From an uncultured Clostridia bacterium (GTDB taxonomy: Bacteria > Bacillota > Clostridia > Oscillospirales > Oscillospiraceae), in NCBI GenBank assembly GCA_947653875.1, contig CANTIK010000010.1, forward strand, positions 12,366-76,365: a stretch of DNA of 64,000 bases, given 5' to 3'. The position numbers and the translations under genes are program-made. How positions within the stretch are numbered: position 1 is the first letter of the stretch; each line of letters begins with the position of its first letter. Of the stretch, positions 14,836 through 44,513 are shown one piece after another. Under the pieces are notes generated by a model, which worked only from the letters and a program-made list of their open reading frames with translations, made no database searches and was not told where the DNA came from.

Positions 14836-14865
14836 GAGATAAAAGCATATAAGGAGATGATCGTG

Positions 14866-15435
14866 ATGCTGCTTGCATGCAAAACGCCGGAGGAACTGGA
14901 TATCTCGAAGCTCCTAGCGATCTACCGCTCGGACTCCCTGGAGAACTGCCGGAGCATGTATCCGGAGGAGCCCACCGTGGAGGCTGCACTGGCCCTCTAT
15001 GAAGCGGGGTACGCGGCGTTCATGCGAAGTGAGTTTTTTGCCCGGCCGGGACGGCTGTGGATGGTGGAGACGGAGGACGGCCTCTGGGCCAGCGCCCTGC
15101 GGCTGCTGCCTTTTGAGGAGGCGAACACTTGGAAGCTTGAGGCCCTGGCGACCCATCCGGACCACCTAAGGCGCGGGTATGCCGCCCGGCTGCTGGCGGA
15201 CACGATCCGATATCTGGAAGAACGCTATGGGGTGGTCACGCTGCTCTCCAGCGTGGGGAAGAGCAACACGGCCTCTCTGCAAACCCATCTGCGCGCCGGC
15301 TTTGTCTGGGAGGGAGAAGCCCAACTGGAGGACGGCTGGCGGTATACGATGGCCTACCGCTCACCCCAGGGGGACAGGTCTGCCGGAACCGGCGCGTCCA
15401 GCGTCAGGCCGTCCGGTGTGACCAGACAGTCATAG
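14866..15435 (+). CDS. GNAT family N-acetyltransferase
   Basis: RRGYAARLL acetyl-CoA motif. Start chosen 9 nt after AAGGAG (alternatives at 14857 and 14863). The 3' end overlaps sfsA convergently. Confidence 0.65.
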   Translation: MLLACKTPEELDISKLLAIYRSDSLENCRSMYPEEPTVEAALALYEAGYAAFMRSEFFARPGRLWMVETEDGLWASALRLLPFEEANTWKLEALATHPDHLRRGYAARLLADTIRYLEERYGVVTLLSSVGKSNTASLQTHLRAGFVWEGEAQLEDGWRYTMAYRSPQGDRSAGTGASSVRPSGVTRQS

Positions 15436-16974: not shown

Positions 16975-18252
16975 ATGGAAGCTATCATGAATTTCATTCA
17001 GGCGACCGGCTTCTATCAGATTGCCACGGGGGACTGGAAGGTCTTGATTATGATGGTCATCGCCTTCGTCCTGCTGTACCTGGCGATTGTGAAGAAGTTC
17101 GAGCCCCTGCTGCTGCTGCCGATTGCCTTCGGTATGCTCATCACCAACCTGCCCGGCGCGGAGATGTATCATGAGATTCTCTTTGCCGGCGGACACGTCA
17201 ACTGGGAGATCTTCGGCGGTCATCCCATTGACCAGGCGTTTATTGACAAATTGAATGACTTGAGGGTATCCCCCGATGTCATCAATACAGTGCAGATGGG
17301 ACAGACCATCTCCGTGGGCCTGCTTGACATACTGTATCTGGGCGTCAAGCTGGGCATCTACCCCTGCCTCATCTTCATGGGCGTGGGCGCGGGCACCGAC
17401 TTCGGTCCCCTGATCGCCAACCCCAAGACCCTGCTGCTGGGCGCGGCCGCCCAGCTGGGCATCTTCATGACCTACGCAGGCTGCCGCCTGTCCGGCATGA
17501 TCCCGGGCTTTGACGGATTCACCTCCGCAGAGGCCGGCTCCATCGGCATCATCGGCGGTGCGGACGGCCCCACGGCCATCTTTGTCACCAGCCGTCTGGC
17601 TCCTCACCTGCTGGGGCCCATCGCCGTTGCGGCATACAGCTACATGGCCCTGGTGCCGGTCATTCAGCCCCCCATCATGCGGGCGCTGACCAGCGAGGCG
17701 GAGCGGAAGATCGTGATGCGCCCCCTGCGTCAGGTTTCCAAGCGTGAGAAAATCCTGTTCCCCATTGTCGTTACCGTGTTCGTGGCCCTGCTGGTGCCCT
17801 CCGCCGGTCCTCTGATCGCCTGCCTGATGCTGGGCAACCTGTTTAAGGAGTCCGGCGTGGTGGAGCGTCTGAACAAGACCGCCCAGAACGAGCTGATGAA
17901 TATCGTCACCATCTTCCTGGGCATCTCCGTGGGCGCTACCGCTACCGCCACCACCTTCCTGTCCTTCCAGACCATCGCCATCATGCTCATGGGCGTTGTG
18001 GCTTTTGGATTCGGTACGGCGGGCGGCGTGCTGCTGGCCAAGTTCATGAACCTGTTCCTCAAGGAGAAGATCAATCCCCTTATCGGCTCCGCCGGTGTGT
18101 CCGCGGTGCCTATGGCGGCCCGCGTGTCTCAGGTGGAGGGGCAGAAGGCCAACCCGGCCAACTTCCTGCTGATGCACGCTATGGGACCCAACGTCGCCGG
18201 CGTGATTGGTTCCGCCATCGCCGCCGGTGTGCTGATGGCGCTGTTCGGTTAA
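16975..18252 (+). CDS. oadB: Na+-translocating decarboxylase beta subunit
   Basis: 425 aa polytopic. OadB/GcdB/MmdB-like sequence throughout. Confidence 0.9.
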   Translation: MEAIMNFIQATGFYQIATGDWKVLIMMVIAFVLLYLAIVKKFEPLLLLPIAFGMLITNLPGAEMYHEILFAGGHVNWEIFGGHPIDQAFIDKLNDLRVSPDVINTVQMGQTISVGLLDILYLGVKLGIYPCLIFMGVGAGTDFGPLIANPKTLLLGAAAQLGIFMTYAGCRLSGMIPGFDGFTSAEAGSIGIIGGADGPTAIFVTSRLAPHLLGPIAVAAYSYMALVPVIQPPIMRALTSEAERKIVMRPLRQVSKREKILFPIVVTVFVALLVPSAGPLIACLMLGNLFKESGVVERLNKTAQNELMNIVTIFLGISVGATATATTFLSFQTIAIMLMGVVAFGFGTAGGVLLAKFMNLFLKEKINPLIGSAGVSAVPMAARVSQVEGQKANPANFLLMHAMGPNVAGVIGSAIAAGVLMALFG

Positions 18253-18304
18253 TGGTTCTCTGCGCCGCTGCGCGGCGCATGGCAAGCTGTTTCGTTTCGG
18301 AGGC

Positions 18305-18800
18305 CCGGGGCTTACGCAGCCCCGGACTCCGCGCCTACTTTTGCCCCGCGGCAAAAGTAGGCAAAAACGCGCCAGAACCATATGGTTCTGGACTCCTTTT
18401 ACGGGGGAGCAAAGGGCTGTGCGGCGGGGTTTCTGGTTAGGCGAAGCCTCCGAATTTGCAGTTCTTCTTCTGCCACTCTGGTACTTGTAGAACTTCGCCT
18501 GTCGGCCTTTCAAAGAGAGACTGCCTGCAAGGGGCGCTTGTTCTAACGAACCAGCCAGCAACTTGCACCCCGGCGAGCCTGCCCCGCTAAAGCGGTAGGG
18601 GCCATCGTCAACCACGCTGAAATAGAAACTGAAGTTGCACGAAGCGGACGGCAGTATGGTAGACCAAACCAGACTGTGCCTCGGGCGCAAACCAATAACC
18701 CCCGTAATGAAGGAGGATTCTTAAGGAACGTAGTTCCTTAAGCGACCTTTTGCTTCTTTTCGTTCGCACGAAAAGAAGGTCCCCGCCCCTGGTGGGGCGG
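18305..18800. repeat. Structured noncoding repeat, copy 1 (inverted relative to copy 2)
   Basis: Alignable to the reverse complement of 43896-44430. GC hairpins at 18305-18325 and 18783-18800. Paired AT-rich hairpins and conserved islands inside. Confidence 0.7.
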
Positions 18801-18849
18801 AAAAAGCCTCCGCCGCCGTGAAACGGCGGCATAAGAAAGGAGCAATTCA

Positions 18850-20316
18850 ATGGAAACAATGGAATTTCTGTCCAAGAAACCCCTCTTAATTACTGATACC
18901 ATCCTCCGCGATGCCCACCAGTCCCAGGCCGCTACCCGCATGACCATCGAGGACATGCTCCCCGCCTGCGAGATTCTGGACTCCATCGGCTACTACTCCC
19001 TGGAGTGCTGGGGCGGCGCTACCTTCGATGTGTGCATGCGCTTCCTCAACGAGGATCCCTGGGAGCGGCTGCGCACCCTGCGCAAGCATCTGCCCAACAC
19101 CAAGCTGCAGATGCTCTTCCGCGGCCAGAACATCCTGGGCTACAAGCACTATGCCGACGACGTGGTGGACGCCTTCTGCCGCAAGTCCATTGAGAACGGT
19201 ATCGACATCATCCGCATCTTCGACGCCCTCAACGATGTGCGCAACCTGGAGCAGGCCATCAAGTCTACCAAGAAGTATGGCGGCACCGTGGAGGCCACCC
19301 TGTCCTACACCATCTCCCCCATCCACAACGAGGACTACTTTGTGAAGATGGCCAAGGAGCTGGAGCAGATGGGCGCGGACACCCTGTGCATCAAGGACAT
19401 GGCCAACCTGCTGCTGCCCATGGACGCTTACTCTCTGGTCAAGCGGCTCAAGGAGAGCGTCAAGATGCCCATCCACCTGCACACCCACAACACCACCGGT
19501 ACCGGCGACATGGTGTACCTCATGGCCGCCTATGCCGGTGTGGATATCGTGGATACCGCTCTGAGCCCCCTGGCCAACGGTACCGCCCAGCCCTCCACCG
19601 AGTCCCTGGTGGCAACCCTCCAGGGCACCGTCCGGGATACCGGTCTGGATCTGAACAAGATGAGCGACGCCGCCGTCCACTTCCGGAAGGTGGCCCAGCG
19701 CCTGAAGGACACCGGCTCTCTGGACCCCAAGGTGCTGAACGTGGACACCAACACCCTGCTCTATCAGGTGCCCGGCGGTATGCTGTCCAACCTTATCAGC
19801 CAGCTCAAGCAGGCCGGTAAGGAGGATAAGTATTACGACGTGCTGGCGGAGATTCCCCGCGTCCGTGAGGACTACGGCTATCCCCCGCTGGTGACCCCCT
19901 CCTCTCAGATCGTGGGTACCCAGGCCGTGATGAACGTCATCATGGGCGAGCGCTACAAGACCTTCACCAAGGAGTCCCGGGCCGTCCTGAAGGGCGAGTA
20001 CGGCGCTCTGCCCGGCAAGGTCAACGAGAAGGTCCGGGAGAAGGCCGGCATCAAGCCTGACGAGGTCATCACGTGCCGTCCGGCGGATCTGCTGGAGCCT
20101 GAGCTGGAGAAGTACAAGGCCGAGTTCAAGGATCTGGCCAAGAGCGAGGAGGACGTGCTGAGTCTGGCGCTGTTCCCCCAGGTGGCCCCCAAGTTCCTGG
20201 CCTGGAGAGACGGCCCCCACGACGAGCCCAAGGCCGCTCCCGCCCCTGCCGCCGCAAAGCCCGCCGCCGATCCCAATGCGGTGCGCGAGCTGTACGTGGA
20301 CGATAAGAGCATCTGA
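18850..20316 (+). CDS. oadA: Oxaloacetate decarboxylase alpha / carboxyltransferase 5S subunit, without biotinyl domain
   Basis: LRDAHQS and TIM-barrel carboxyltransferase sequence. The C-terminus ends in an Ala/Pro linker with no MKM motif. Confidence 0.9.
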   Translation: METMEFLSKKPLLITDTILRDAHQSQAATRMTIEDMLPACEILDSIGYYSLECWGGATFDVCMRFLNEDPWERLRTLRKHLPNTKLQMLFRGQNILGYKHYADDVVDAFCRKSIENGIDIIRIFDALNDVRNLEQAIKSTKKYGGTVEATLSYTISPIHNEDYFVKMAKELEQMGADTLCIKDMANLLLPMDAYSLVKRLKESVKMPIHLHTHNTTGTGDMVYLMAAYAGVDIVDTALSPLANGTAQPSTESLVATLQGTVRDTGLDLNKMSDAAVHFRKVAQRLKDTGSLDPKVLNVDTNTLLYQVPGGMLSNLISQLKQAGKEDKYYDVLAEIPRVREDYGYPPLVTPSSQIVGTQAVMNVIMGERYKTFTKESRAVLKGEYGALPGKVNEKVREKAGIKPDEVITCRPADLLEPELEKYKAEFKDLAKSEEDVLSLALFPQVAPKFLAWRDGPHDEPKAAPAPAAAKPAADPNAVRELYVDDKSI

Positions 20317-20493
20317 TTTTTTAGAACCTGTATTCATAACCGGAGGATGCTGGATGGACGAGGATTTTTCTCGTCAGACAAGGAGATTTTTCGCAGCAAT
20401 CCTGACGGATTGCAAGGGAAATCGACGCAGTATGGCGGGAAAAAGACCGGCCAGACGGCGTACTACGGTTGTGAATACAGGTTCTTATAGTGT

Positions 20494-24255: not shown

Positions 24256-24723
24256 ATGATGAATTTGGGAAACAACCTGTTCCAGGCGCGTAAGAAATGC
24301 GGGCTCTCTCAGGAGGAGGTGGCGGAAAAGCTGGGGGTGAGCCGTCAGACCATATCCAAGTGGGAAACCAGTGAGACGCTGCCCGACATCCGGCAGTCCA
24401 AACGGCTGGCGCTCTTGTACCGCCTGTCGCTGGACGAACTGATCGACTTTGATATGGATATTCAGGAGGTGGAGCAGGCCATTGAGCGGACCAGTGCCGC
24501 TCTGGAGGAAAAAATCGATTGGACAAAGGCTTGGGGCAAAAAATACCCCATCCTGCTGACCTACCGGCAGGATGTGAACGTGGGCAACTACGCCGTACAG
24601 CTGTCCGCAATGATCGCAGATCTAAAAAGCAGCTACGGCTACAGTGAGCTGGACGCCTTCCTGGTATTGAAGGATATTCTGGCCGCCGTCTGGAAGAGCC
24701 GGAAACAGCGGGAAAAGGCGTAA
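24256..24723 (+). CDS. XRE-family HTH transcriptional regulator
   Basis: LSQEEVAEKLGVSRQTISKWE HTH_3 motif. Confidence 0.8.
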   Translation: MMNLGNNLFQARKKCGLSQEEVAEKLGVSRQTISKWETSETLPDIRQSKRLALLYRLSLDELIDFDMDIQEVEQAIERTSAALEEKIDWTKAWGKKYPILLTYRQDVNVGNYAVQLSAMIADLKSSYGYSELDAFLVLKDILAAVWKSRKQREKA

Positions 24724-24769
24724 GGCAGCCGGAGAGGTCCGATAACGGGGGCGCGGGAGCGCCGGAAAT

Positions 24770-24803
24770 AAAAAAGATGCACCGCGCAGCGGTGCATCTT
24801 TTT
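24770..24803 (+). terminator. Intrinsic terminator
   Basis: GATGCACCGC/GCGGTGCATC stem plus TTTTT. Confidence 0.65.
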
Positions 24804-24861
24804 GGGAGCTTGTCCGGCACAACGGACGCCGGCAGTTTGCAAGTTAACTCCTAGTGAGGCC

Positions 24862-25359
24862 TCATTTTGCGATATATCCCGTCCTTGCAAGACGGTCGAT
24901 CGCTGAATCGATCCTCTTTTCCGAATACTTATTCCCCTTGATTTTAATAACTCCCAGTTTTACAGCAGATACCTCTTTTTTTGCCTGCAAATAGACATAA
25001 AGCGACGTGGCCAACAGCTCCAGCTCGCTTGGGGAATCCTTGGCAAATTCATCTATAACCTCATTAACAATTGCATCATTATAAGGCTCACGTTCCAGAA
25101 CGGATGTATCTGCCACAGAAATCAAATGTTCCATAGGGGTATAATGGATTTGCAAAATGCCCTCGTCACTTAATTCTCTAACCGCAAAATCTAAATCCGC
25201 ACTATATGGCCCATAGAAATGAATTCCGTAATCACAGCCAAGGTCTATCTGCTTTGCCTGAATCAGGAACACAATTTTTTGAAGTGTTTTTTTACACGGC
25301 GGAGCGTTTTCCTTCGTTATCCTGTTGACGATATTTACAATTGCATGATTATTGACCAT
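24862..25359 (-). CDS. YwgA-like small protein (possible DUF4065/Panacea-like fold)
   Basis: ATG at 25359 with GGAGG 8 nt upstream. 165 aa. KTLQKIVFLIQ...FYGPYSADLD motif. AT-rich. Immediately downstream of the HD gene, as in the B. subtilis ywfO-ywgA pair. Confidence 0.6.
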   Translation of the reverse strand: MVNNHAIVNIVNRITKENAPPCKKTLQKIVFLIQAKQIDLGCDYGIHFYGPYSADLDFAVRELSDEGILQIHYTPMEHLISVADTSVLEREPYNDAIVNEVIDEFAKDSPSELELLATSLYVYLQAKKEVSAVKLGVIKIKGNKYSEKRIDSAIDRLARTGYIAK

Positions 25360-25376
25360 GAATAATCCTCCGAATT

Positions 25377-26678
25377 TCAATCGCTTTGTAAGCGCTCTAT
25401 TTCTGCCAATACCTCCCCGACGATGTCCTTGCCTGCATAAATGCGATGGATGTTAATGGGCCTTACGATAGATTCTAAAATAATGGACTCTTCCATAATA
25501 TTTGTCACAGCGCGCGTCTGTGGATCAAGAATCATAATACCCTTTCCGCTGTCATCCTGAGGCGCAAGCAGCACCGGCGCAAGCTTATGTGCAGCTTTAT
25601 CAACACTGTCGTAGGCAACTTGGTCTCCATATGCCTCTTGCAGGATTTTATAGATCACTTTGGCATTTGTCTTTTCACCTTTTCCTGCATGAGCTTTTGA
25701 TTCAAATACACATGTCATAATTTCTCGCTGCTTAAAGGCAATGACCTCCGGTGCCTCCGAATCTGCAATCAAGCTGAGAATTCGAGAATCATTCCATTTC
25801 AAATACTCGTGAACTTCCGTTGGATACTTTCCATTTGGGAGGATCGCTTTCAAACTTTTGACCAGAACCTTGTCCAAATATCTGCGTGTCTTATGGAAAT
25901 AAACCTGGATAAACATAAAATATCTCGCAAGCACGAATTCCTCTAAGGCCTGGACACCTCCCCTCTCAATAGCAAGCTGTAGTGTGTGGTCATCTTTATA
26001 GACAGTCAATGTTGAAATAAATCTATTCAGATCATATTTGCCATAAGTAACGCCACAATACAAAGAGTCCCTCAACAAATAATCCATCTTATCGCAGTCA
26101 AGCTCGCCATCCATAAAGCTTTGCAAAAAGAGAAAATCAGGAACGACAAATTTCTCATCTGTAACCTGTTTTCCCTCATAAATCATCCAAACAAGCTCTG
26201 GCGTGATATCATAAGCTTCACCATATTCCCGCTGAAACTTCGAGCCAATCCTGCGAATATGATCTGCGATCTCAGTTTCAGTAATAATAATCCGTGTAAA
26301 ATCTTCATGCTTTTGCCCATTCTCAAACAATTCCTCAGATGCATGAGAAAAAGGAGCATGTCCCAAATCATGGGTCAGTCCAATAATCCGGAGCAATTGC
26401 CGGTACCACGCCGTCTTACGCCGGTTTTCCTCCCTGTTATCTGAAAAGAGGTTCGGCGTTTTTTGCGTCACAGAATCAAATGCGCGGGAGGTCAAGTGCA
26501 TAGTACCGATAGAATGTCCAAACCGTGTATGTTCAGCCCCATGATAAACCAAATATGTGGTAGCTAATTGATGTATATTGCGTAATCGCTGAAAGGGAGC
26601 TGAGTTTATGATTTTTAATTCATCTTCAGAAACATCAATGAATCCATGGACAGGATCTCTAAATTGGTACATAGGCAC
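25377..26678 (-). CDS. HD-domain phosphohydrolase, YwfO/SAMHD1-like putative dNTP triphosphohydrolase
   Basis: 433 aa. EHTRFGHSIGTMHL and THDLGHAPFSH HD motifs. AT-rich relative to the flanks. Confidence 0.8.
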   Translation of the reverse strand: MPMYQFRDPVHGFIDVSEDELKIINSAPFQRLRNIHQLATTYLVYHGAEHTRFGHSIGTMHLTSRAFDSVTQKTPNLFSDNREENRRKTAWYRQLLRIIGLTHDLGHAPFSHASEELFENGQKHEDFTRIIITETEIADHIRRIGSKFQREYGEAYDITPELVWMIYEGKQVTDEKFVVPDFLFLQSFMDGELDCDKMDYLLRDSLYCGVTYGKYDLNRFISTLTVYKDDHTLQLAIERGGVQALEEFVLARYFMFIQVYFHKTRRYLDKVLVKSLKAILPNGKYPTEVHEYLKWNDSRILSLIADSEAPEVIAFKQREIMTCVFESKAHAGKGEKTNAKVIYKILQEAYGDQVAYDSVDKAAHKLAPVLLAPQDDSGKGIMILDPQTRAVTNIMEESIILESIVRPINIHRIYAGKDIVGEVLAEIERLQSD

Positions 26679-26973
26679 TCTCCTTTTGTAAAGGGAGACA
26701 TAGTTTTTTTATTTTAACAGAAATGTATACAGATTTCAATCCCTTGATTGTGGATATCCTTTCAGGCCTCCCGGTCCGAAGGGCTTTTTTATCCAATTCA
26801 TGACATCAGTACGCCTTCTCCACGCCGCCGGAGCAACCCCCACCGATTTGGTGAACTCCTTGTTATCATCGGGAAACCATATATAGCAATCATCAGAATT
26901 CCTGGCAAAAGCTCGGGGATACAAAGGGCGCATGGCCGCGTTGTCGTCCTTGGCGGGCGTCAGCCCGCCTGCG

Positions 26974-27041
26974 TCCTCCGCCTTGCCCTGCGCCCTTTGT
27001 CCTCCCCTCCTTTTTTGTCATGAATTCTGAAGCTTGCTATA
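26974..27041 (+). repeat. 68 bp repeat, copy A (inverted partner at 40003-40069)
   Basis: About 64 of 68 positions identical to the reverse complement of 40003-40069, with one 1 nt indel. Confidence 0.8.
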
Positions 27042-27043
27042 TA
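27015..27043 (+). promoter_or_regulatory. Sigma-A-like promoter inside repeat copy A
   Basis: TTGTCA, 17 nt spacer, TATATA, pointing toward the XRE gene at 27308. Confidence 0.45.
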
Positions 27044-27202
27044 TAGTCGAAGCAGTTGAAAATCGGTAAAGTTCGGCGGCCAAAACAGGGCGTGGACTTC
27101 GTTGTTGTCCTTGGCGGGCGTCAGTCCGCCTGCGTCCTCCGCCTCGCCACACCCGGTTTTCCCTCGCCTCCTTTTTACCGATTCTCAACTGCTTCGACTA
27201 TA
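27042..27202. repeat. 29 bp inverted repeat pair flanking a 103 bp spacer
   Basis: 27042-27070 versus the reverse complement of 27174-27202, one mismatch. The spacer holds a second copy (27100-27144) of the 45 nt unit at 26939-26983. Confidence 0.75.
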
Positions 27203-27307
27203 CTATAGGAAAAACAGAATATGCAACCGCTGGTTGCGGAAGTTTCAAGCGCAGTTGATAGCGTGCCGCGGGAAATGGCGGTATGATTTTGGCAAGGAGG
27301 TAAGAGA

Positions 27308-27763
27308 ATGTTGTCTGAAAAAATCTATTCACTCAGGCGGAAGAATGGACTTTCACAGGAGCAGCTTGCGGAAAAAATCGGTGTTTCACGGCAAGCGGTA
27401 TCAAAATGGGAGGGAGGGCTGTCCACCCCGGAATTGGACAAGCTCAGGGCGCTGAGCGAATGCTTTCAAATTACAATGGACGAGCTGACCGGAAACCGGA
27501 CGATCCATGGTTCCGGCGATGCAGACAGGGAGGAACAGGCCCCGGCTCCCGGCAAAGGAGGAGAGAGCAGACTGGGCGTTTGCCTCTGTGTGACAGGCGC
27601 CGTCTGTCTGATCCTGTTTGGCGTCCTGACCGTTATGCACCCATCGACTGTTGACCGGATCAGCGGCTCATCGGCGGTCACCCTGAACGGAACGGGAATG
27701 CTCATTCTCCTGTTTGTGCTGCTGATGGTTTCAGGAATGCGGATGATGTTTAAGAAAAAATAA
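27308..27763 (+). CDS. XRE-family HTH protein with C-terminal transmembrane region
   Basis: LSQEQLAEKIGVSRQAVSKWE HTH, then two hydrophobic helices. AAGGAGG RBS. Confidence 0.8.
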   Translation: MLSEKIYSLRRKNGLSQEQLAEKIGVSRQAVSKWEGGLSTPELDKLRALSECFQITMDELTGNRTIHGSGDADREEQAPAPGKGGESRLGVCLCVTGAVCLILFGVLTVMHPSTVDRISGSSAVTLNGTGMLILLFVLLMVSGMRMMFKKK

Positions 27764-27788
27764 GAACCTGTATTCAGGAGGTAACACG

Positions 27789-28025
27789 ATGAAGAAATAC
27801 AAGCGGCTGACCTGTCTTTTTGCCGTTCTTGCGGCGCTGCTTTCGCATGTCATGTGCGCCGCGGTTGCATACAGCTACTGCGCGCTTCAATGGGGCGGAC
27901 AATACGCCGGATGCAGCGCCCCGGCCGGCACAGCGTTTCTGCTGTGCATTCCATACGGGATTGGCGTGCTGATATGCGCCGCCTCGGCCTGGCTTTTCAA
28001 TGTAAAGTCTCAGCAGTCCGTATAA
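27789..28025 (+). CDS. Small membrane protein
   Basis: 78 aa, GGAGG RBS, about 3 hydrophobic segments. Confidence 0.5.
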   Translation: MKKYKRLTCLFAVLAALLSHVMCAAVAYSYCALQWGGQYAGCSAPAGTAFLLCIPYGIGVLICAASAWLFNVKSQQSV

Positions 28026-28152
28026 GCGGCGACGCTCTTGAAGGCGTTCTTTCCAGCGGAATTTCTTATCTTTCGCGCCGGCCTGCCGATATGTTAGTAT
28101 AAGCAGCCATCAAAACCGCCGCGGCGGTTTGATAAGAAGGGAGGCCCCAGGA

Positions 28153-36543: not shown

Positions 36544-36876
36544 AGTCGCTTCCTCCATTCCTTCTTGTGAACAATGATTCACGTCATGGGACCAGCGTAC
36601 CACAACGGGGAAGGATTGTCAACGGATGGGAGGAATTTGTTCCTCGTTTTGTTGATTTTGTCAAGGTGCGCTGCGACAGCCCTTTGGACAGCCCGGCTGC
36701 GCTGGCCTGATATCCGGCCCGGGCATCGACTTGCTTCCGTACATGTGAACGCGGAGGTTTGTCTTCCCTCAAACTGGGGACAGAAACGGGGAAAAGTTGC
36801 CGGGGAGAGGGCAACGGGTGGGGAAAATTTTTCTGCGGCGGGTGCGGGGCATTGGTTATTCACGCCCTCACATGGG

Positions 36877-37130
36877 TCATCGGCGCAAAATCGTAGACAA
36901 ACGGTTTTTTATCGCTATAATGGGGCGTGCATTGCTCGTGAAGGTGTGACGGAGCATATGGAGATGGGAGTCCTCCAAGCCTTTCACCTTTTTCTTTGCC
37001 TGACGGCACATGATGCTTACTGTCCCCGGCCCCGTCAGGCCGGAGGCAGACAAAGGATATTGCTCTATATTCCTCCGCACCGGACCGGGTGCAGACCTCA
37101 TATTTATGGCGAGACAGGGAAAGTAAAAGT
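36877..37130 (-). pseudogene. Tyrosine recombinase (phage integrase) remnant
   Basis: Translation contains KGLEDSHLHMLRHTFTS (box II HxLRHTF), but there is no catalytic Tyr region and no proper N-terminus. Confidence 0.5.
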
Positions 37131-37917
37131 CCACAAAAGGTAACAGTAGCAATACTTAGGGAGAATTAGGGAGAGATAGGGAAAGTGTTAGATAATCCTA
37201 TCTGAAATATAAATGCGATGATGGAATCTTGAAAGGGATAGAGCAGGCGGCTTTTCATCTTCACTGCAGCACAAGACAACTCCAGAGGGTTTTGAACCAA
37301 TGTGAAGCTGATGGATTTGTCAAAAAAGTAGGGAAGGGAACGTATAAACTGTTTGGAGCGGAATGATTCAGACAGTCAACTGTCTATTAAAAGCGGGAAA
37401 TATGGGTAGAAAGATAATTGAAATAGAATTGCATTTTTCTGCTTTATATGCCACCATTAGAATTGTGAACCGGCAGGGAAAAGCAAGATAGTTTGTCTGC
37501 CGTTATCACCGCTGATAAATCCAAATTGTTTCGCAGTATATCACTGGCAGATGGATTGCTAAGCTTTTATAGCTTACTGAATCATGGGATGAATGCTTGG
37601 GAAACGGTGCTGAATGTAGTTGCATTTCCCCGCCTTTTGTGCTACTATTTTGAGAGAAAAATCAAGCTGTCAAAGCGGATTTTGTATAACAGACCGTATG
37701 AACGCCTTTAGCTGCGGATGACACGGCTAAAGACGTTTTTATCATTTTCGTTCTCCTCTTTTAACCATTTATTTTGAATATAATCTTGTCTAAATCGCCA
37801 ATATTTTCTCTATGGCAAAAGCAATTTTTGAAGCAATAGTCCTGCAAATATTATTTACAAAACCGCGAATGTGCGGCATAGAAACGGCATCGCTGAATTT
37901 TTACCGGAGGACAAATC

Positions 37918-38928
37918 GTGAATACTGAAGCCACTTTTGCAGAAATCAGAAATAGATATTCTGATGAATACTATAGTACAGAGAATTCCATTCTTGTCCA
38001 GGGGGATTCCTTGGAACTGTTAAAAAAAATTCCTGACCATAGTGTCGCACTGATTTTGACGGACCCGCCCTATCATTCAACCAAAAAGCGCAACATAATC
38101 GGTGATACCAACTTCTCAAAAGATTCTGAATATATCGAATGGATGAAAAAATACGCAATAGAATGGAAAAGAGTCCTGAAACATAACGGCAGTATTTTTT
38201 GCTTTTGTTCCTCAACAATGTCGGCACAGCTGCAGGTAATGTTCTCTGCGTATTTCAATGTATTATCCGAAATTGTCTGGACGAAGCCAAATGCTCCCGG
38301 GTATGACGGCTGGAAGCAAAAGATGAAAAAAGAAGCTCTCCGTCAATGGTATTCTTATTCGGAACGCATCATTTTTCTTGAAAATGCCGCGGAGGGGAAT
38401 TTATTCAAAAGTTATTTTGGCGGGCGGCTTACTGCCTGGAGAAAAAGCGTTAATATGACCACAATCAAACTGGCTGAGCTAACTGGGGCATATGGCAAAG
38501 TCAACCACGGAGGGGCTGTTGCAAATTGGGAAGCAGGACGAAATATTCCGAGCAAGGAACAGTATGAAAAACTTAAAAAGGCACTTTCGGAAGCAGGCGT
38601 CCCTGACCTTCCGGAGTATGAAGATGTCATCCGTCCATTTAATGTAAGTAAAGATATTGAATTTACAGATGTTTGGTCTTTTGAAAATGTGCGGCAGTAT
38701 AAAGGCAAGCACCCGGCCGAGAAGCCTGTGGATTTATTGGAACATGCTATAAAGGCAACCACATATGAAGGCGACATTGTCTTGGATTGTTTTGCCGGTT
38801 CTGGATCGACGGGCGTTGCCGCACTGCACTTAGGCAGAAGAGCGGTCTTGTTTGAAATTGATCCAGCATGGTGCAGCTATGGGAGAGATTGTCTGCATGG
38901 CAGCAGCGCTTTCAGCGTCATTGGATAA
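37918..38928 (+). CDS. Type II DNA methyltransferase, beta-class N6A/N4C (DPPY before FxGxG)
   Basis: GTG start after GGAGGA. TDPPYHS motif IV, C-terminal DCFAGSGSTG motif I, HTH-like insert (TTIKLAELTG...ANWEAGRNIP) between them. AT-rich. Confidence 0.85.
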   Translation: MNTEATFAEIRNRYSDEYYSTENSILVQGDSLELLKKIPDHSVALILTDPPYHSTKKRNIIGDTNFSKDSEYIEWMKKYAIEWKRVLKHNGSIFCFCSSTMSAQLQVMFSAYFNVLSEIVWTKPNAPGYDGWKQKMKKEALRQWYSYSERIIFLENAAEGNLFKSYFGGRLTAWRKSVNMTTIKLAELTGAYGKVNHGGAVANWEAGRNIPSKEQYEKLKKALSEAGVPDLPEYEDVIRPFNVSKDIEFTDVWSFENVRQYKGKHPAEKPVDLLEHAIKATTYEGDIVLDCFAGSGSTGVAALHLGRRAVLFEIDPAWCSYGRDCLHGSSAFSVIG

Positions 38929-38963
38929 CAAAAAACCTGAGTGTTTTATACTCAGGTTTTTTG
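38929..38963. terminator. Bidirectional terminator between the convergent M and R genes
   Basis: CCTGAGT/ACTCAGG stem flanked by A6 and T6 runs. Confidence 0.65.
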
Positions 38964-38969
38964 TTGGCT

Positions 38970-39968
38970 TTACTGCAGATAACCGGCTTCCTTATTTTGG
39001 GCAATCACTTTTTGCATCCAATCGAGCGTAGGGTATATACCTGCATCTTTTACGACTACGTTGCAGAAATGGCAGCCCCATCCAAGATTATATGGGCGAT
39101 GATTAAACGCTCCGAATTTTAGCTCTTCAATATGGAACAAGTTGACTTGGGTTACCGTGAGATCCGGCACTTCCCGGCCTTCAGGCTGGGCTAAACGGTT
39201 CAGAAACTCTTCTCCGGATAGTTCCTTCAGGCAAAGAGGACAAATCGTATGATTTAGAGAATTGATAATTCTTTTGAACCGCAGTTTTTCAAAATCAAGC
39301 AAGCCGTGCCTTTGGCTTTTGTCCAAAACCAAACGTTTTCGCAATTCGGCATCTTCACGCCGCATACCATTATTGGCCATTGTTTCAAGGGAGTCCCTGC
39401 ACAGCCAGAAAATCGCTTCTAACTGCAGTCTGCATTCCTTGATTGTGTCCTTTGACGCGTACTCATATAATCGGATGCCAGCTCCTTTGGAAGATTGGGC
39501 AGCATAGCCCAGATTGACTTTTTGCGCGCGGCCAGCATCAATTGACGTATTGGCAGGAACACGCGCGGCATACTGCCCGCCTAATGGCGCGGTTCTGCTG
39601 TTTGCATATATCCATCCATAATTATCGGGCGAATAGGCTTCCCAATCTGCGCGGGTTTCATAAAAGACGAGAGCGTTTTCTCCTAAAGCCAGATCAAATT
39701 TTTGAAAATACTCTGTCGGGTTTTCTATGGAAAAATAATCTGCCGGAGAAATCAATACGATATATCCACATTCAAATTGATCGGACATATCTCTTAACGC
39801 GGGACTTTCCTGCCATTGATGGAAGGGAATCAAAACGGTATTGCTGCGCGAAACACGATTTTGAAAAATAACGTCGTCATCAGCACCTCTGGTCTGTCCT
39901 GTTTTGCTGAGTTTCTGTTCCAGCAGTTGTGGTAATTTCGGTAATCCAGGTTTACTACGTCTCGGCAT
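38970..39968 (-). CDS. Putative type II restriction endonuclease with C-terminal beta-beta-alpha-Me (HNH-like) Cys/His module
   Basis: 332 aa, AT-rich, convergent with the methyltransferase. CPLC...LFHIE...FNH...GWGCHFCN motif. Confidence 0.55.
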   Translation of the reverse strand: MPRRSKPGLPKLPQLLEQKLSKTGQTRGADDDVIFQNRVSRSNTVLIPFHQWQESPALRDMSDQFECGYIVLISPADYFSIENPTEYFQKFDLALGENALVFYETRADWEAYSPDNYGWIYANSRTAPLGGQYAARVPANTSIDAGRAQKVNLGYAAQSSKGAGIRLYEYASKDTIKECRLQLEAIFWLCRDSLETMANNGMRREDAELRKRLVLDKSQRHGLLDFEKLRFKRIINSLNHTICPLCLKELSGEEFLNRLAQPEGREVPDLTVTQVNLFHIEELKFGAFNHRPYNLGWGCHFCNVVVKDAGIYPTLDWMQKVIAQNKEAGYLQ

Positions 39969-40000
39969 GTTTACTTTCCTCCATAAATATTTTTTTCCTA

Positions 40001-40029
40001 TCTATAGCAAGCTTCAGAATTCATGACAA
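40001..40029 (-). promoter_or_regulatory. Sigma-A-like promoter inside repeat copy C, driving the endonuclease gene
   Basis: Minus strand TTGTCA, 17 nt spacer, TATAGA, about 30 nt upstream of the RBS/ATG at 39968. Confidence 0.5.
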
Positions 40030-40069
40030 AAAGGAGAGGAGGACAAAGCGCGCAGGGCAAGGCGGAGGA
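40003..40069 (-). repeat. 67 bp repeat, copy C (inverted partner of 26974-27041)
   Basis: Reverse complement matches copy A, including the promoter hexamers and the GAATTC/AAGCTT-containing spacer. Confidence 0.8.
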
Positions 40070-40115
40070 TGTGGGCGGCAGCGAAGCCCTGCGCCATTTG
40101 GCGTCTGACGGCAGT

Positions 40116-41294
40116 TCACCAAAGCTTGAACGTCTGAATCCCCCACTTGGCAGCCTTATAGGACAATGTCTCCAGCTCTGAGGCCGCCTCCTTCAGCAGC
40201 TGCCGGACGGGCAGCTGCTGGGGACAGTGGCTCTCACATTTTCCGCAGCCCACGCACAAGGAGGCGCTGCTGGGGTTCTGCCGCATGGCGGTACACTGCA
40301 GATAGTCCCGCCGGCCGGAAGCGCGTCCCTCGGCATACATGGCGTTATAGCACCGGAAGGTCCCCGGGATATCCACACCCTTGGGGCAGGGCATGCAATA
40401 CCCGCAGCCGGTGCAGCCAACCTTCATATACCGCCGGATCTCCTCCCTGACCCGTTCCACCAGAGCCCGGTCGCCATCCGTCATACACCCCGGCAGGCAC
40501 GCGGAAGCCAAAGCGACATTCTCCTTCACCATCTCCATGGAGTTCATGCCGGACAGGACACAGGTCACCTCCGGCTGGTCATACAGCCACTTGAACGCCA
40601 GGGCGGCAGGGGTACGGCCCTGGGGATCGTTTTGGAACAGCGCCCTGGCCGTCTGGGGCAGCATGTTCACCAGCCGCCCGCCCCGGAGGGGCTCCATGAT
40701 AACCACCGGCAGGCCCTTGGCATGGGCGTACCGCAGGCCCTCCACTCCGGCCTGGGAGGTCTCATCCATGTAGTTGTACTGAATCTGGCAAAAGTCCCAG
40801 TGGTAGGCGTCCACCAGCTGCTTGAACACAGGGGCGCTGCCATGATAGGAAAAGCCGATGTTCCGGATCTCCCCGGCCTCCAGCTTGCCGGCAATCCAGT
40901 CCTCTATCCCCAGGGCTTTCAGCTTCTCCCAGGTGGCGGCGTCGGTGAGCATGTGCATGAGGTAGTAGTCGATATGATCCGTCCCCAGGCGGCGCAGCTC
41001 CTCCCGGAAGATCTTTTCCGCGCCCTCCACGGACTTGATGAGGTAGTGGGGCAGCTTTGTAGCCAGATAGACCTGGTCCCGGCGTCCGTTCCGGCGGAGG
41101 ATCTCTCCCACCGCCGCCTCGTTTCCGGAATATATATAGGCCGTATCCAGGTAATTTACGCCGCCCTCAATGGCCGCCGTCACCTCACGCTCCGCCTTGT
41201 CCAGGTCTGTACCGCCTCCCTTCCGGGTAAAGCGCATACAGCCGTAGCCCAGGAGGGAGATGTCCTTCCCCTTCTTGTCCTTCCGGTATTGCAT
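40116..41294 (-). CDS. Aldo/keto reductase with C-terminal 2x[4Fe-4S] ferredoxin domain
   Basis: Start at MQYRKDK. AKR motifs (LDTAYIY). CTGCGYCMPCP and CVGCGKCESHCP clusters. Confidence 0.85.
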   Translation of the reverse strand: MQYRKDKKGKDISLLGYGCMRFTRKGGGTDLDKAEREVTAAIEGGVNYLDTAYIYSGNEAAVGEILRRNGRRDQVYLATKLPHYLIKSVEGAEKIFREELRRLGTDHIDYYLMHMLTDAATWEKLKALGIEDWIAGKLEAGEIRNIGFSYHGSAPVFKQLVDAYHWDFCQIQYNYMDETSQAGVEGLRYAHAKGLPVVIMEPLRGGRLVNMLPQTARALFQNDPQGRTPAALAFKWLYDQPEVTCVLSGMNSMEMVKENVALASACLPGCMTDGDRALVERVREEIRRYMKVGCTGCGYCMPCPKGVDIPGTFRCYNAMYAEGRASGRRDYLQCTAMRQNPSSASLCVGCGKCESHCPQQLPVRQLLKEAASELETLSYKAAKWGIQTFKLW

Positions 41295-42372: not shown

Positions 42373-43215
42373 TTACAACAGTTCAATTACGCCGCAGGCG
42401 AATCCAAGCCACTCCGGATGCTCCAAGGCCATTTTTTGCAGAGAGGTGCCGCCGGCCGGCAGTTCCTTCCTGCCGTCAAAAAGATTCTCAAAAGCCTGTC
42501 CGGAATCGGCACAGCAGCCAATGACTGTGAACCGCTCCGCAAACTGCCGGATGCGGGAATCCGGGGGCAGGTGCGTCACCATAGGCGGATACAGCAGCCA
42601 GCTGTAGCAGAGGAACGCCCTGAATGGGTTGGCCGGAGCGCATTCCTTGAAAAAGCGTCCCGCTTCTTCCAGCGACCGGGCGGTCATTCCGGCATCCAGA
42701 TCTGTTCCGCGCTGTATATGGCAGTTGATGACCGGACTTCCCGCGGGTATCCGCTCTTTTTGCTCCTGCGTAAACGACATGTACGGTTCGCCGAGGGTTT
42801 CCTCATCCAGATATATCATTTCAAACGGCTGAAACTGCAGTGTGCCGAGCTTGAAGATGTTGATGTTCATGATATGGCGGAACCAGATCACGTCATCCTT
42901 TGACAGCCCGGCCTCGCCGGTCTTTTCCCGGTACAGTCCGGCCCGCAGGGAGACGTCTTTGAATGTCTCAATAATAACGTCGCCGGGCGTCCCCTTTTCC
43001 CTGTAAGCGTCATATTTTTCTGTCAGAAGACAGGTTATCACCGCCAGCCGCGTCAACGGTTCGGAACCGCAGAGGTGAAAGTCAAAGTCCTCTCCCCGGT
43101 ACGCTTCCGCCGCCAGCCTCCGGATTCGCTCCGGGCTCCGGCTGATTTCCCCGCGCACGGCGTCTTCCATGCCGTGCGCAAATTCCAGTTTGGGCAGCAG
43201 CGACTCCAAAGTCAT
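42373..43215 (-). CDS. Hypothetical protein (DUF5596/acyltransferase-like)
   Basis: Start at MTLESLL forms an ATGA overlap with the arsC-family stop. No clear catalytic motif recognised. Confidence 0.5.
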   Translation of the reverse strand: MTLESLLPKLEFAHGMEDAVRGEISRSPERIRRLAAEAYRGEDFDFHLCGSEPLTRLAVITCLLTEKYDAYREKGTPGDVIIETFKDVSLRAGLYREKTGEAGLSKDDVIWFRHIMNINIFKLGTLQFQPFEMIYLDEETLGEPYMSFTQEQKERIPAGSPVINCHIQRGTDLDAGMTARSLEEAGRFFKECAPANPFRAFLCYSWLLYPPMVTHLPPDSRIRQFAERFTVIGCCADSGQAFENLFDGRKELPAGGTSLQKMALEHPEWLGFACGVIELL

Positions 43216-43547
43216 TCCCACTGTTCCCACACCTCCGGGCAGTAGCCCACCGTGACCTGCTTCCCGTTGCGGACAATGGGGGTGCGGAACAGCTTGGGAT
43301 TCTCGAATAGCTTATCCTCCGCCGCTTCGGGGGTGATATACGCCATGTATAAGTCCTGATAGGCTTTACACTTTGTATCCACCAGCTGCTGAAAGGTCAG
43401 CTTCTGCCGGATGGAGCGGTATTCCCCCAGGGAGAAGCCCTTTTTCGGAAGATCGATGGACTGGTACTTGATGCGCCGCTCCTTGAACCAGCGCTCTGCC
43501 TTTTTGGTGTCGAAGCACTTGGATGAGCCGAAAATCTGGATATTCAT
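43212..43547 (-). CDS. ArsC/Spx/YffB-family protein
   Basis: 111 aa. MNIQIFGSSKCFDTKKAERWF thioredoxin-like N-terminus. Confidence 0.8.
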   Translation of the reverse strand: MNIQIFGSSKCFDTKKAERWFKERRIKYQSIDLPKKGFSLGEYRSIRQKLTFQQLVDTKCKAYQDLYMAYITPEAAEDKLFENPKLFRTPIVRNGKQVTVGYCPEVWEQWE

Positions 43548-43590
43548 AACGACAACTCCTTTGTTGATATGTTAATGGAGGTATATTTCC

Positions 43591-43880
43591 TTGAAATATG
43601 AGATCGTGAAACTCCGGGAGTGTCCGGAGAGGAAGGACGAGGCCGCGGTATGGTTCCATGAGAAGTGGGGCTATCCTCTGGAGGCCTACCGGGAGAGTAT
43701 GGAAGAGTGTCTGGCGGGCGGGGGCCCGGTTCCCCAGTGGTACATGGCTGTGGCGGAGGGACGGATCATACGTCGTTTTATGAGCGGTATGGATGGGAGT
43801 TTTTCTGCATGGCCTTGGGGGATGGGGAGGACAGGCCCAGCAGGATGTACCGGCGGCCCTGCGGGCCGCTCCTGCTCTGA
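43591..43880 (+). pseudogene. GNAT acetyltransferase with internal deletion/frameshift
   Basis: The N-terminal 60 aa are in frame 1. The C-terminal TDHTSFYERYGWEF...SRMY is in another frame. The acetyl-CoA-binding core is missing. Junction near 43759-43772. Confidence 0.55.
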
Positions 43881-43895
43881 TCTTTCGTTTAGATT

Positions 43896-44430
43896 CGTCC
43901 CTGCCGGGACGGGGGCGTACTTTTCGTGTGAACGAAAAGTACCAAAAGGTCACTTAGGAAACTGCGTTTCCTAAGAACCTTCCCTCATTACGGGGGTTAT
44001 TGGTTACGCTACGACCTTTGGACTGGCTGGGCTATCTCCGGTGCTATGGGCCGATGCCGGTGCATACTTCTGCGCACAGTCCTAACGATGGTGCTGGTTG
44101 CCTCGCGGCACTCGGCACGGGGGTCTGGTGGGGAGGGTGCGAATTTGAAGGATGTACCGTTAGACCGTGTGCCCCTTGCAGGGAGTACCCCTTTGAAAGA
44201 GCGGCAGCCGGAGTTCTACAAGTACCAGAGCGGCAGAAGGAGAACCGGAAATTCGGAGGCTTCGCCTCCCCAAAAACCCCGCCGCACAGTCCTTTGGTCC
44301 TCGCCGAGGATTTGCCGAACAGGCAAAGCCGAGAAGGGATTCTTAAACCGTCAGGTTTAAGTGACTTTTTGGTTACTTTTTGTTCACACAAAAAGTAACC
44401 GCAGGGCGTCCGGGGCCGCGCAGGCCCCGG
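43896..44430. repeat. Structured noncoding repeat, copy 2
   Basis: GC hairpins at 43896-43911 and 44410-44430. Terminal inverted modules at 43917-43980 and 44337-44400. Homologous to copy 1 in reverse orientation. Confidence 0.7.
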
Positions 44431-44513
44431 GGTATCGAAAAGAAACAGGCGGAGGCGGCCCGCAGGGCCGCAGATAAGACCACCGCGATACGCACATGAA
44501 GGAGGGCCCCCCT

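Follow-up and report, generated by a model that had tools for sequence, protein, structure and literature searches.

The stretch of DNA analysed here, 64,000 nt of contig CANTIK010000010.1 from an uncultured Oscillospiraceae bacterium (the window), carries two related non-coding segments in opposite orientation. Copy 1 is flanked by genes with OAD_beta (oadB) and PYC_OADA/HMGL (oadA) domains, and copy 2 lies immediately upstream of a Sir2-family gene; the gene context given in a first-pass annotation of the window is therefore right. That annotation had also paired 18305-18800 with the reverse complement of 43896-44430. The relationship is real: region 18240-18860 (plus strand) and the reverse complement of 43860-44500 align in MAFFT with a mean column identity of 78%. 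The paired segments are indeed homologous, but they were drawn too short, the true spans being 18261-18830 and 43853-44471. We conclude that the two segments are members of a dispersed non-coding DNA repeat family in a clade of gut Oscillospiraceae.

Copy 1 is flanked by the oadB stop codon (18250-18252) and the oadA ribosome-binding site (RBS) and ATG (18850). Its features, followed by those of copy 2, are:

18261-18830, plus strand: copy 1, whole element, alpha + beta1 type (nhmmer E 5.6e-152)
18261-18407, plus strand: copy 1 left arm, hairpins A-D and inner arm
18261-18279, plus strand: copy 1 hairpin A, which looks locus-specific; a linker comes next
18305-18325, plus strand: copy 1 hairpin B
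18335-18360, plus strand: copy 1 hairpin C
18361-18371, plus strand: copy 1 linker; CGCGC at 18368-18372 is complementary to the hairpin C loop
18372-18391, plus strand: copy 1 hairpin D
18392-18407, plus strand: copy 1 left inner arm, ACTCCTTTTACGGGGG
18408-18549, plus strand: copy 1 alpha module, non-coding, with islands GGCGAAGCCTCCGAATTT and CTCTGGTACTTGTAGAAC and the 3' end TCTAACGA
18550-18698, plus strand: copy 1 beta1 module, the variable half; in relatives also after XRE or DUF6809 genes
18699-18830, plus strand: copy 1 right arm, inverted counterpart of the left arm
18699-18715, plus strand: copy 1 right inner arm, CCCCCGTAATGAAGGAG
18720-18742, 18753-18778, 18783-18800 and 18812-18830, plus strand: copy 1 hairpins D', C', B' and A'
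43853-44471, minus strand: copy 2, whole element, alpha + beta2 type (nhmmer E 3.1e-158); the Sir2-family gene starts at 44496
44301-44471, minus strand: copy 2 left arm, with hairpins A (44455-44471), B (44410-44432), C (44371-44400) and D (44342-44361)
44157-44300, minus strand: copy 2 alpha module
44007-44156, minus strand: copy 2 beta2 module, a sequence type unlike beta1 of copy 1
43853-44006, minus strand: copy 2 right arm, with hairpins D' (43953-43975), C' (43917-43942), B' (43896-43911) and A' (43853-43869)

The copies measure 570 bp (copy 1) and 619 bp (copy 2), and neither contains a transposase gene. An outer GC hairpin is present at both sides of each, and the left arm of copy 2 has an additional hairpin (44311-44328) with no counterpart in copy 1. 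All the stems listed in the first-pass annotation are present, with sequence that differs between the copies while pairing is kept. Its conserved islands are equally sound: TCTACAAGTACCAGAG, AATTCGGAGGCTTCGCCT and CATTACGGGGGTTATTGGTT each occur exactly twice in the window, where they had been placed, against a mean of 0.00-0.12 matches in shuffled sequence, and the fourth, ACCCCGCCGCACAG, is identical between the two copies in the alignment. What that annotation lacks is the relation between the two ends of each copy: left and right are inverted repeats.

Members of the family share an architecture of two arms of ~150-200 bp, imperfect inverted repeats, around two modules of ~140-150 bp with their junction near TCTAACG. 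Three or four short palindromic hairpins in a row make up each arm. The outer GC hairpin or hairpins A vary from locus to locus and are constant among orthologs of one locus; between hairpins A and B stands a linker with the consensus TTTCTATTCGATA, and the terminal sequence of the element is TTTCTATTCGATA-CCCCGGGG. Hairpin B is GC-rich, while hairpin C is AT-rich and of the form CTACTTTTGCC...GGCAAAAGTAG, with CTAC...GTAG stems in many variants, not all. The linker CAAAAACGCGC then leads to hairpin D, of the form CTTAAACC...GGTTTAAG, and the arms end inward in TTACGGGGG on the left and CCCCCGTAA on the right, with ~300 nt of unique sequence between them. The right side mirrors the left, linkers included (CCCCCGTAA, D', C', B', A'). 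The right ends match a left-arm profile on the opposite strand (E ~1e-17 to 1e-25), and when the left arm is aligned locally to the reverse-complemented right arm, the match extends over 150-200 nt. In some copies the right arm is a near-perfect inverse of the left, and in others, both window copies included, it is more diverged. The outermost hairpins adjoin stop codons or the RBS/ATG of neighbouring genes. A pairing of TTACGGGGG with CCCCCGTAA as the long-range closing helix of an RNA was considered and rejected, these sequences being the innermost part of the terminal inverted repeat.

The arms can themselves harbour other small repeats. At four homologous loci (designated L plus a number throughout; here L138, L117, L238 and L141), a double-palindrome of ~77 nt (CGATTATTCATGACCGCATCGAGCGGTCATGAATAATTG...) is nested in hairpin C or sits beside hairpin B, and reads as a second small repeat inserting into the first.

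Between the arms, the alpha module with GGCGAAGCCTCCGAATTT comes in two types: type A, to which both window copies belong, has CTCTGGTACTTGTAGAAC, and type B has a different, longer insert. Of the second module there are two or more forms that look unrelated; copy 1 has beta1 and copy 2 has beta2. The invariant alpha island GGCGAAGCC (18440-18448; 44258-44266) contains GCGAAGC, a heptamer that in DNA folds into a mini-hairpin of unusual stability, its loop being GAA, and this offers a faint lead towards a single-stranded-DNA role. At five loci (L240, L160, L218, L163 and L115) a 55-nt GC hairpin pair (GGGGCGGCC TTT GGCCGCC ... GGGGCCGCC GTA GGCGGCC) is inserted at an identical point of alpha, between GGGGTACTGCC and CTGCAAGGGGC, and a similar hairpin doublet is found in the B' region of the right arms of L153, L252 and L189. 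These units resemble REPINs (pairs of inverted repetitive extragenic palindromes, REPs) and appear to move independently.

The family extends well beyond the window. Among genomes sampled at one per species, the exact alpha 18-mer GGCGAAGCCTCCGAATTT is found on eight contigs of one Clostridiales metagenome-assembled genome (MAG), on six of one Oscillospiraceae MAG and in three more Oscillospiraceae/Oscillibacter MAGs; the other matches to this 18-mer do not share the rest of the element. A two-island pattern identified at least 119 loci on metagenome contigs, and among viral contigs only one true homolog, L061, emerged from a 15-mer scan. An nhmmer profile built from 14 copies gave 232 matches, 70 of them near-full-length and 63 non-redundant at <96% identity. 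Many matches lie at contig ends, as expected because a repeat breaks assemblies. In ERZ808054, an assembly of uniform coverage, matches fall on at least 11 contigs, at least 5 of these on one 193-kb contig, and at least 17 copies occur within one metagenome assembly. Several loci hold half-only copies, comprising an arm and alpha. The copies are dispersed in unrelated genomic contexts, as are those of MITEs (miniature inverted-repeat transposable elements).

This repeat is undescribed as far as the catalogues and literature searched can tell. Across the whole window, none of the 4227 models of Rfam 15 matched at the gathering threshold, and at E <= 10 the two copies gave chance-level matches to unrelated small families only. 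A blastn comparison with PLSDB plasmids and INPHARED phages gave no match to the element, and the literature search yielded nothing relevant on such a repeat in Oscillibacter or Clostridia.

Copies are retained at orthologous sites while their interiors change. All relatives examined, whose OadB is 90-95% identical, have the oadB|oadA site occupied, with a spacer of ~600 nt each time. In L268-270, which represent one species, the outer arms at this site are as in the window, and the interior lacks alpha altogether, having a beta1 in reverse and, after it, a beta2-like module. Set against two orthologous loci in a sliding comparison, the window is 96-100% identical in the flanks of the element and 75-85% in the middle, and the differences in the middle come as blocks that match variants of other copies. 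It follows that paralogs exchange their interiors, which are not conserved. We also considered special purifying selection on the left arm; this was rejected on the sliding-window comparison, in which the adjacent 3' end of oadB is equally conserved. Some pairs of loci share the element together with one flank only (L137 with L149, and L166 with the window), which suggests that copies act as rearrangement breakpoints.

Relatives of the window copies carry genes. The same arms and beta/alpha modules flank a divergent pair of small genes, XRE helix-turn-helix (XRE-HTH, PF01381) and DUF6809 (PF20648), in L155, L260 and L272-277, and an XRE gene only in L255. Three of the gene-bearing elements, which are ~1.1-1.3 kb long, are delimited as follows:

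L155, 5-1193: XRE (PF01381) and DUF6809 (PF20648)
L260, 183-1329: XRE (PF01381) and DUF6809 (PF20648)
L272, 4386-5521: XRE (PF01381) and DUF6809 (PF20648)

The XRE and DUF6809 genes read outward, each through its own module and then through hairpins D, C and B. In L272 the element (~1.13 kb) separates a HAD hydrolase gene from pyrE within an operon for pyrimidine biosynthesis, and its inverted repeat reaches ~300 bp because both arms include a beta1-type module. Most contigs that encode close DUF6809 homologs are shorter than 2 kb, again as expected because the repeat breaks assemblies. Shared inverted-repeat ends around passenger genes, with no transposase, are the arrangement of a mobile insertion cassette (MIC), and it is seen in these relatives, not in the window copies. 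With arms and modules shared, the window copies are thus gene-less, MITE-like members of the family. These relatives are also the first genomic context found for DUF6809, a domain on which a literature search turned up nothing.

The HAD|pyrE site takes other forms elsewhere. L278 and L280 have a diverged gene-less member there, and L279 has a large-serine-recombinase element whose junction lies within hairpin D. In the latter (L279:160-2463), a large serine recombinase with Resolvase, Recombinase, Zn_ribbon_recom and DUF4368 domains, together with TnpW, interrupts or adjoins the copy; in L122 (86-1427), TnpV, HTH_17 excisionase-like, XRE and RHH genes abut or interrupt one. Such repeats may serve as integration sites. 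A separate idea, that one mobile element had integrated at the 'truncated', alpha-only copies, stays anecdotal, because the neighbours of these copies differ: they are RHH and XRE genes, in L122 TnpV, and in L194 and L169 genes of the chromosome.

Folding and covariation locate the structural signal in the arms. Whole copy 1 folds far better than shuffled sequence (z = -8.75, plus strand; -7.75, minus strand), whereas its middle (18404-18700) has no such advantage (z = +0.10 and +0.59). Among 63 copies, a strict scan of column pairs supported covariation in hairpins B, C, D, D' and C' only; a permissive scan was discarded as noise. RNAalifold on the whole alignment, tried as a strand test, gave similar energies for the two strands (-271 versus -279) and therefore did not discriminate between them.

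The clearest case is hairpin C and the helix that its loop forms with the following linker, which we analysed in an alignment of 45 arm sequences (A4). Overall, 96.2% of cells are paired and 10 of 16 pairs have changed on both sides. Hairpin C itself contributes 12 pairs, with both-sided change in seven of them and 98.1% of cells paired. Four nucleotides of its loop pair with the end of the linker, and three of these four pairs have changed on both sides; the variants are GYGA/TCRC, GCGC/GCGC and GCCCGC/GCGGGC, with GCCCAC/GTGGGC as a fresh double change. Neither the covariation score nor the percentage of paired cells was reached by any of 500 shuffles, and sliding the partners by 1-3 columns destroyed the signal. 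The loop-linker pairing is either a pseudoknot or an alternative helix. In alpha, mutual information singled out one convincing covarying pair within a 3-bp mini-stem; it is CG in 37 copies, GC in 21, and complementary throughout. Covariation in the arms, a single pair in alpha and a middle that folds like shuffled sequence mean that the earlier description of the segments, as conserved islands with covarying stems, holds for the arms and not for the middle.

Compensatory changes in the arm palindromes would reflect selection for intrastrand pairing, whether in single-stranded DNA or in RNA, and would not imply one large folded RNA. When the arm stems are read on the outward-reading strand, G.U-type mismatches outnumber A.C-type mismatches by 83 to 42, a modest ratio of ~2:1 that is uncorrected for the relatedness of the copies. 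This excess is compatible with hairpins that act in outward transcripts.

Taken together, the segments are probably gene-less MITE/MIC-like derivatives of a small cassette family, kept at old sites, with an interior reshuffled by recombination. The first-pass annotation had left a choice between a structured RNA and a structure-dependent mobile element. The many copies and long, hairpin-rich inverted repeats fit the mobile element, whereas a discrete RNA of ~0.5 kb is unsupported. On this reading, the family from which the window copies would derive resembles MICs and would have spread as DNA into intergenic sites, including sites within operons, probably moved by an enzyme supplied in trans. 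Copies would then have persisted at the same sites across species, and their interiors would have been reshuffled by recombination or gene conversion among paralogous copies.

Several observations weigh against such a history. By eye, no target-site duplication is recognisable at the ends, where the locus-specific hairpin A blurs the termini. Among the loci of OadB, DUF6809 and PyrE homologs there is no clean empty orthologous site, each being occupied, variant or a remnant; the 115-nt HAD|pyrE spacer of L282-284 still holds outer right-arm sequence and an A-type hairpin and is therefore a remnant rather than a virgin site. When all open reading frames (ORFs) of ~270 loci were clustered, no transposase or recombinase recurred beside the copies, and no autonomous element or parent insertion sequence (IS) with the same ends was seen in these loci. 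We therefore infer mobility only from copy number and varied contexts. The loop-linker covariation, moreover, points to structure beyond simple palindromes, and it would fit, as would the G.U excess, a role of the arms at the RNA level. The mechanism of movement, and any service of the retained copies to the host as transcript-end structures, we can only infer.

Such a service is the substance of an alternative in which the copies are domesticated intergenic repeats like REPs or bacterial interspersed mosaic elements (BIMEs), with arm hairpins that, in RNA, stabilise 3' ends, terminate or insulate for genes beside or within the element; it is for this role that copies would be kept. It concerns the role of retained copies rather than their spread, and so overlaps in part with a mobile origin. 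Retention at orthologous sites across species-level divergence speaks for it, as do the outermost hairpins abutting stop codons or RBS/ATG, the genes of gene-bearing relatives that read outward through the hairpins, the 83:42 mismatch count on the outward strand, and eight and six terminator-like sites in the two window regions, where shuffles predict 1.3-1.4. The arms beside oadB nevertheless do not exceed the neighbouring coding sequence in conservation, AT-rich sequence makes up hairpins C and D, and the GC-rich hairpins mostly lack a direct T-run on the outward strand; nor is there a gene of the RAYT type among the ORFs of the ~270 loci. Going by crude gene calls, the genes on both sides of copies seem to face them with their starts about twice as often as with their ends, with no link to the orientation of the middle. 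We regard this alternative as possible though doubtful.

A single large structured RNA gene, that is, a discrete non-coding RNA of ~0.5 kb in many paralogous copies, is unlikely. Conserved islands separated by variable hairpins and hairpin-sized indels would suit it, as would the covarying arm helices with their pseudoknot-like loop-linker pairing, the covarying pair in alpha, and the C(UACG)G-type loop and GNA triloops readable in the sequence. Yet no Rfam family matches even at E <= 10, the core is no stabler than shuffles on either strand and diverges faster than the flanks, and homologous elements lack alpha, have it inverted or carry protein genes in its place. A scan found no sigma-70-like promoter in either copy, candidates picked by eye are unconserved between types, and element orientation is unrelated to the direction of the flanking genes. 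Less likely again is an invertible DNA switch of the inverton or shufflon kind, in which the arms are recombination sites and the middle flips to change the readout to the neighbours. Long inverted repeats around a ~300-bp middle recall such a switch, the two window copies are opposite in orientation relative to co-directional neighbours, and beta1 is reversed at the oadB|oadA site of L268-270; but the L268 arrangement is a module replacement and no simple flip, and flank-to-element orientation agrees in all but 4 of 546 comparisons, those four having rearranged flanks. The six gene-bearing HAD|pyrE copies all have one orientation, no invertase gene recurs nearby in the ~270 loci, and no promoter was detected in the middle. 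That the copies are decayed duplicates of a protein-coding gene we consider scarcely credible. The ORFs over the copies, described before as short and in different frames, do differ in frame between the copies, but not all are short: copy 2 is crossed by an ORF of 132 aa and copy 1 by a shadow ORF of 581 aa, which might hint at a lost gene. Against this, the copy-2 frame is interrupted by a stop in copy 1, stops and frameshifting indels in type B relatives separate them from type A and break the ORF frames of both copies, and the hairpin-sized indels are not multiples of three. With frames inconsistent between copies and between types, a coding element was rejected.

Known mobile repeats offer partial models for the mobile cassette family that we favour. 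Bacterial MITEs such as Correia/NEMIS in Neisseria, RUP and BOX in pneumococcus and bcr1 in Bacillus cereus are likewise small, non-coding and many-copy, with terminal inverted repeats and no transposase of their own; they too are intergenic, sometimes within operons, and can form long hairpins in transcripts. The arms here are far longer, however, at ~150-200 bp (up to ~300 bp in gene-bearing relatives), and are built of three or four separately covarying palindromes with a loop-linker pairing; no target duplication or parent IS was found, and a modular interior is exchanged between copies. Long multi-hairpin arms, loop-linker covariation and XRE/DUF6809 relatives thus separate the family from textbook bacterial MITEs. 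MICs, of which MIC231 of Bacillus cereus is an example, have short IS231 inverted repeats as ends and are moved by the IS231 transposase. The family resembles them in its inverted-repeat ends around passengers (XRE-HTH and DUF6809 in L155, L260 and L272) without a transposase, and in the coexistence of gene-less derivatives, but no cognate IS or transposase is known here and the ends are long multi-hairpin arms.

REPs are 20-40 nt long and REPINs ~100 nt; they are associated with RAYT transposases (Y1 HUH) and may act in mRNA stability or termination. With the REP/BIME/REPIN group the family has in common palindromes with compensatory change, inverted arrangement, long vertical persistence and location at gene ends. 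In contrast to that group, it has a unique middle of ~300 bp, no RAYT was seen in the loci, and a GTAG-type motif is found in only some hairpin C stems. The large RNAs OLE, ROOL, GOLLD, HEARO/omega RNA and raiA are similar in size range, in Clostridia-type hosts and in having islands between variable stems; unlike them, the elements gave no match at permissive thresholds, end in inverted repeats and have a core without thermodynamic or covariation support.

If the mobile-cassette reading is right, a common group of gut Oscillospiraceae would carry a repeat family absent from the catalogues searched, one that breaks assemblies, sits inside operons (oad here and pyr in relatives) and marks rearrangement breakpoints. 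Regions of this family should then not be labelled as novel RNA genes in annotation, and the covarying hairpins with their one loop-linker pairing would give a defined handle for finding the protein or process that recognises them. A bolder version, which we put forward tentatively and think improbable as a whole, is that the family is a structure-recognised mobile cassette, a Firmicutes counterpart of REPIN/BIME of a new structural grade. Its hairpin-array ends (150-300 nt, with the pseudoknot-like loop-linker pairing) would be read as single-stranded DNA or RNA by some enzyme; its cargo would be the XRE/DUF6809 pair or non-coding modules, and its copies would also be landing sites for serine-recombinase elements and breakpoints of genome rearrangement.

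The comparisons with orthologous loci brought out further differences around the copies. Inside oadB, a block of ~200 nt (17175-17375) is 69-80% identical to orthologs, the rest of the gene being 91-100% identical, and looks like a recombination tract or a locally variable protein loop. Between oadA and the downstream sigma-factor gene, there is a separate insert of ~160 nt (20324-20484) with a 14-bp inverted repeat (AGAACCTGTATTCA ... TGAATACAGGTTCT) at its borders. L154, L231 and L265, though collinear otherwise, lack this insert, which looks like a different, recently gained small MITE. Around copy 2, L259 is 98-99% identical to the window and has ~170 extra bases (L259:4902-5074; window ~43760-43769), ~90 nt outside the element, where the alignment blocks overlap by ~10 nt, possibly a small insertion with a target duplication. 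Also beside copy 2, at 43411-43880, an acetyltransferase-like gene that is intact in L194 (7307-7954) is reduced to ORFs 43411-43575 and 43665-43880, which are without a Pfam match and may be a frameshifted pseudogene.

Farther from the copies, two stretches of ~3.4 kb each (24723-28129 and 36603-40116) are without an ORF of the high third-position GC (GC3) typical of the genome, on a crude gene map, and could be foreign DNA, RNA genes or low-GC3 genes. The segment 42367-43208, which overlaps a 285-aa ORF (42373-43230), is absent from L122 and L194. The segment 14783-15351 is replaced by ~70 nt in L250 and L265-267; it overlaps ORF 14857-15435, whose counterpart in L268 is an acetyltransferase by Pfam.

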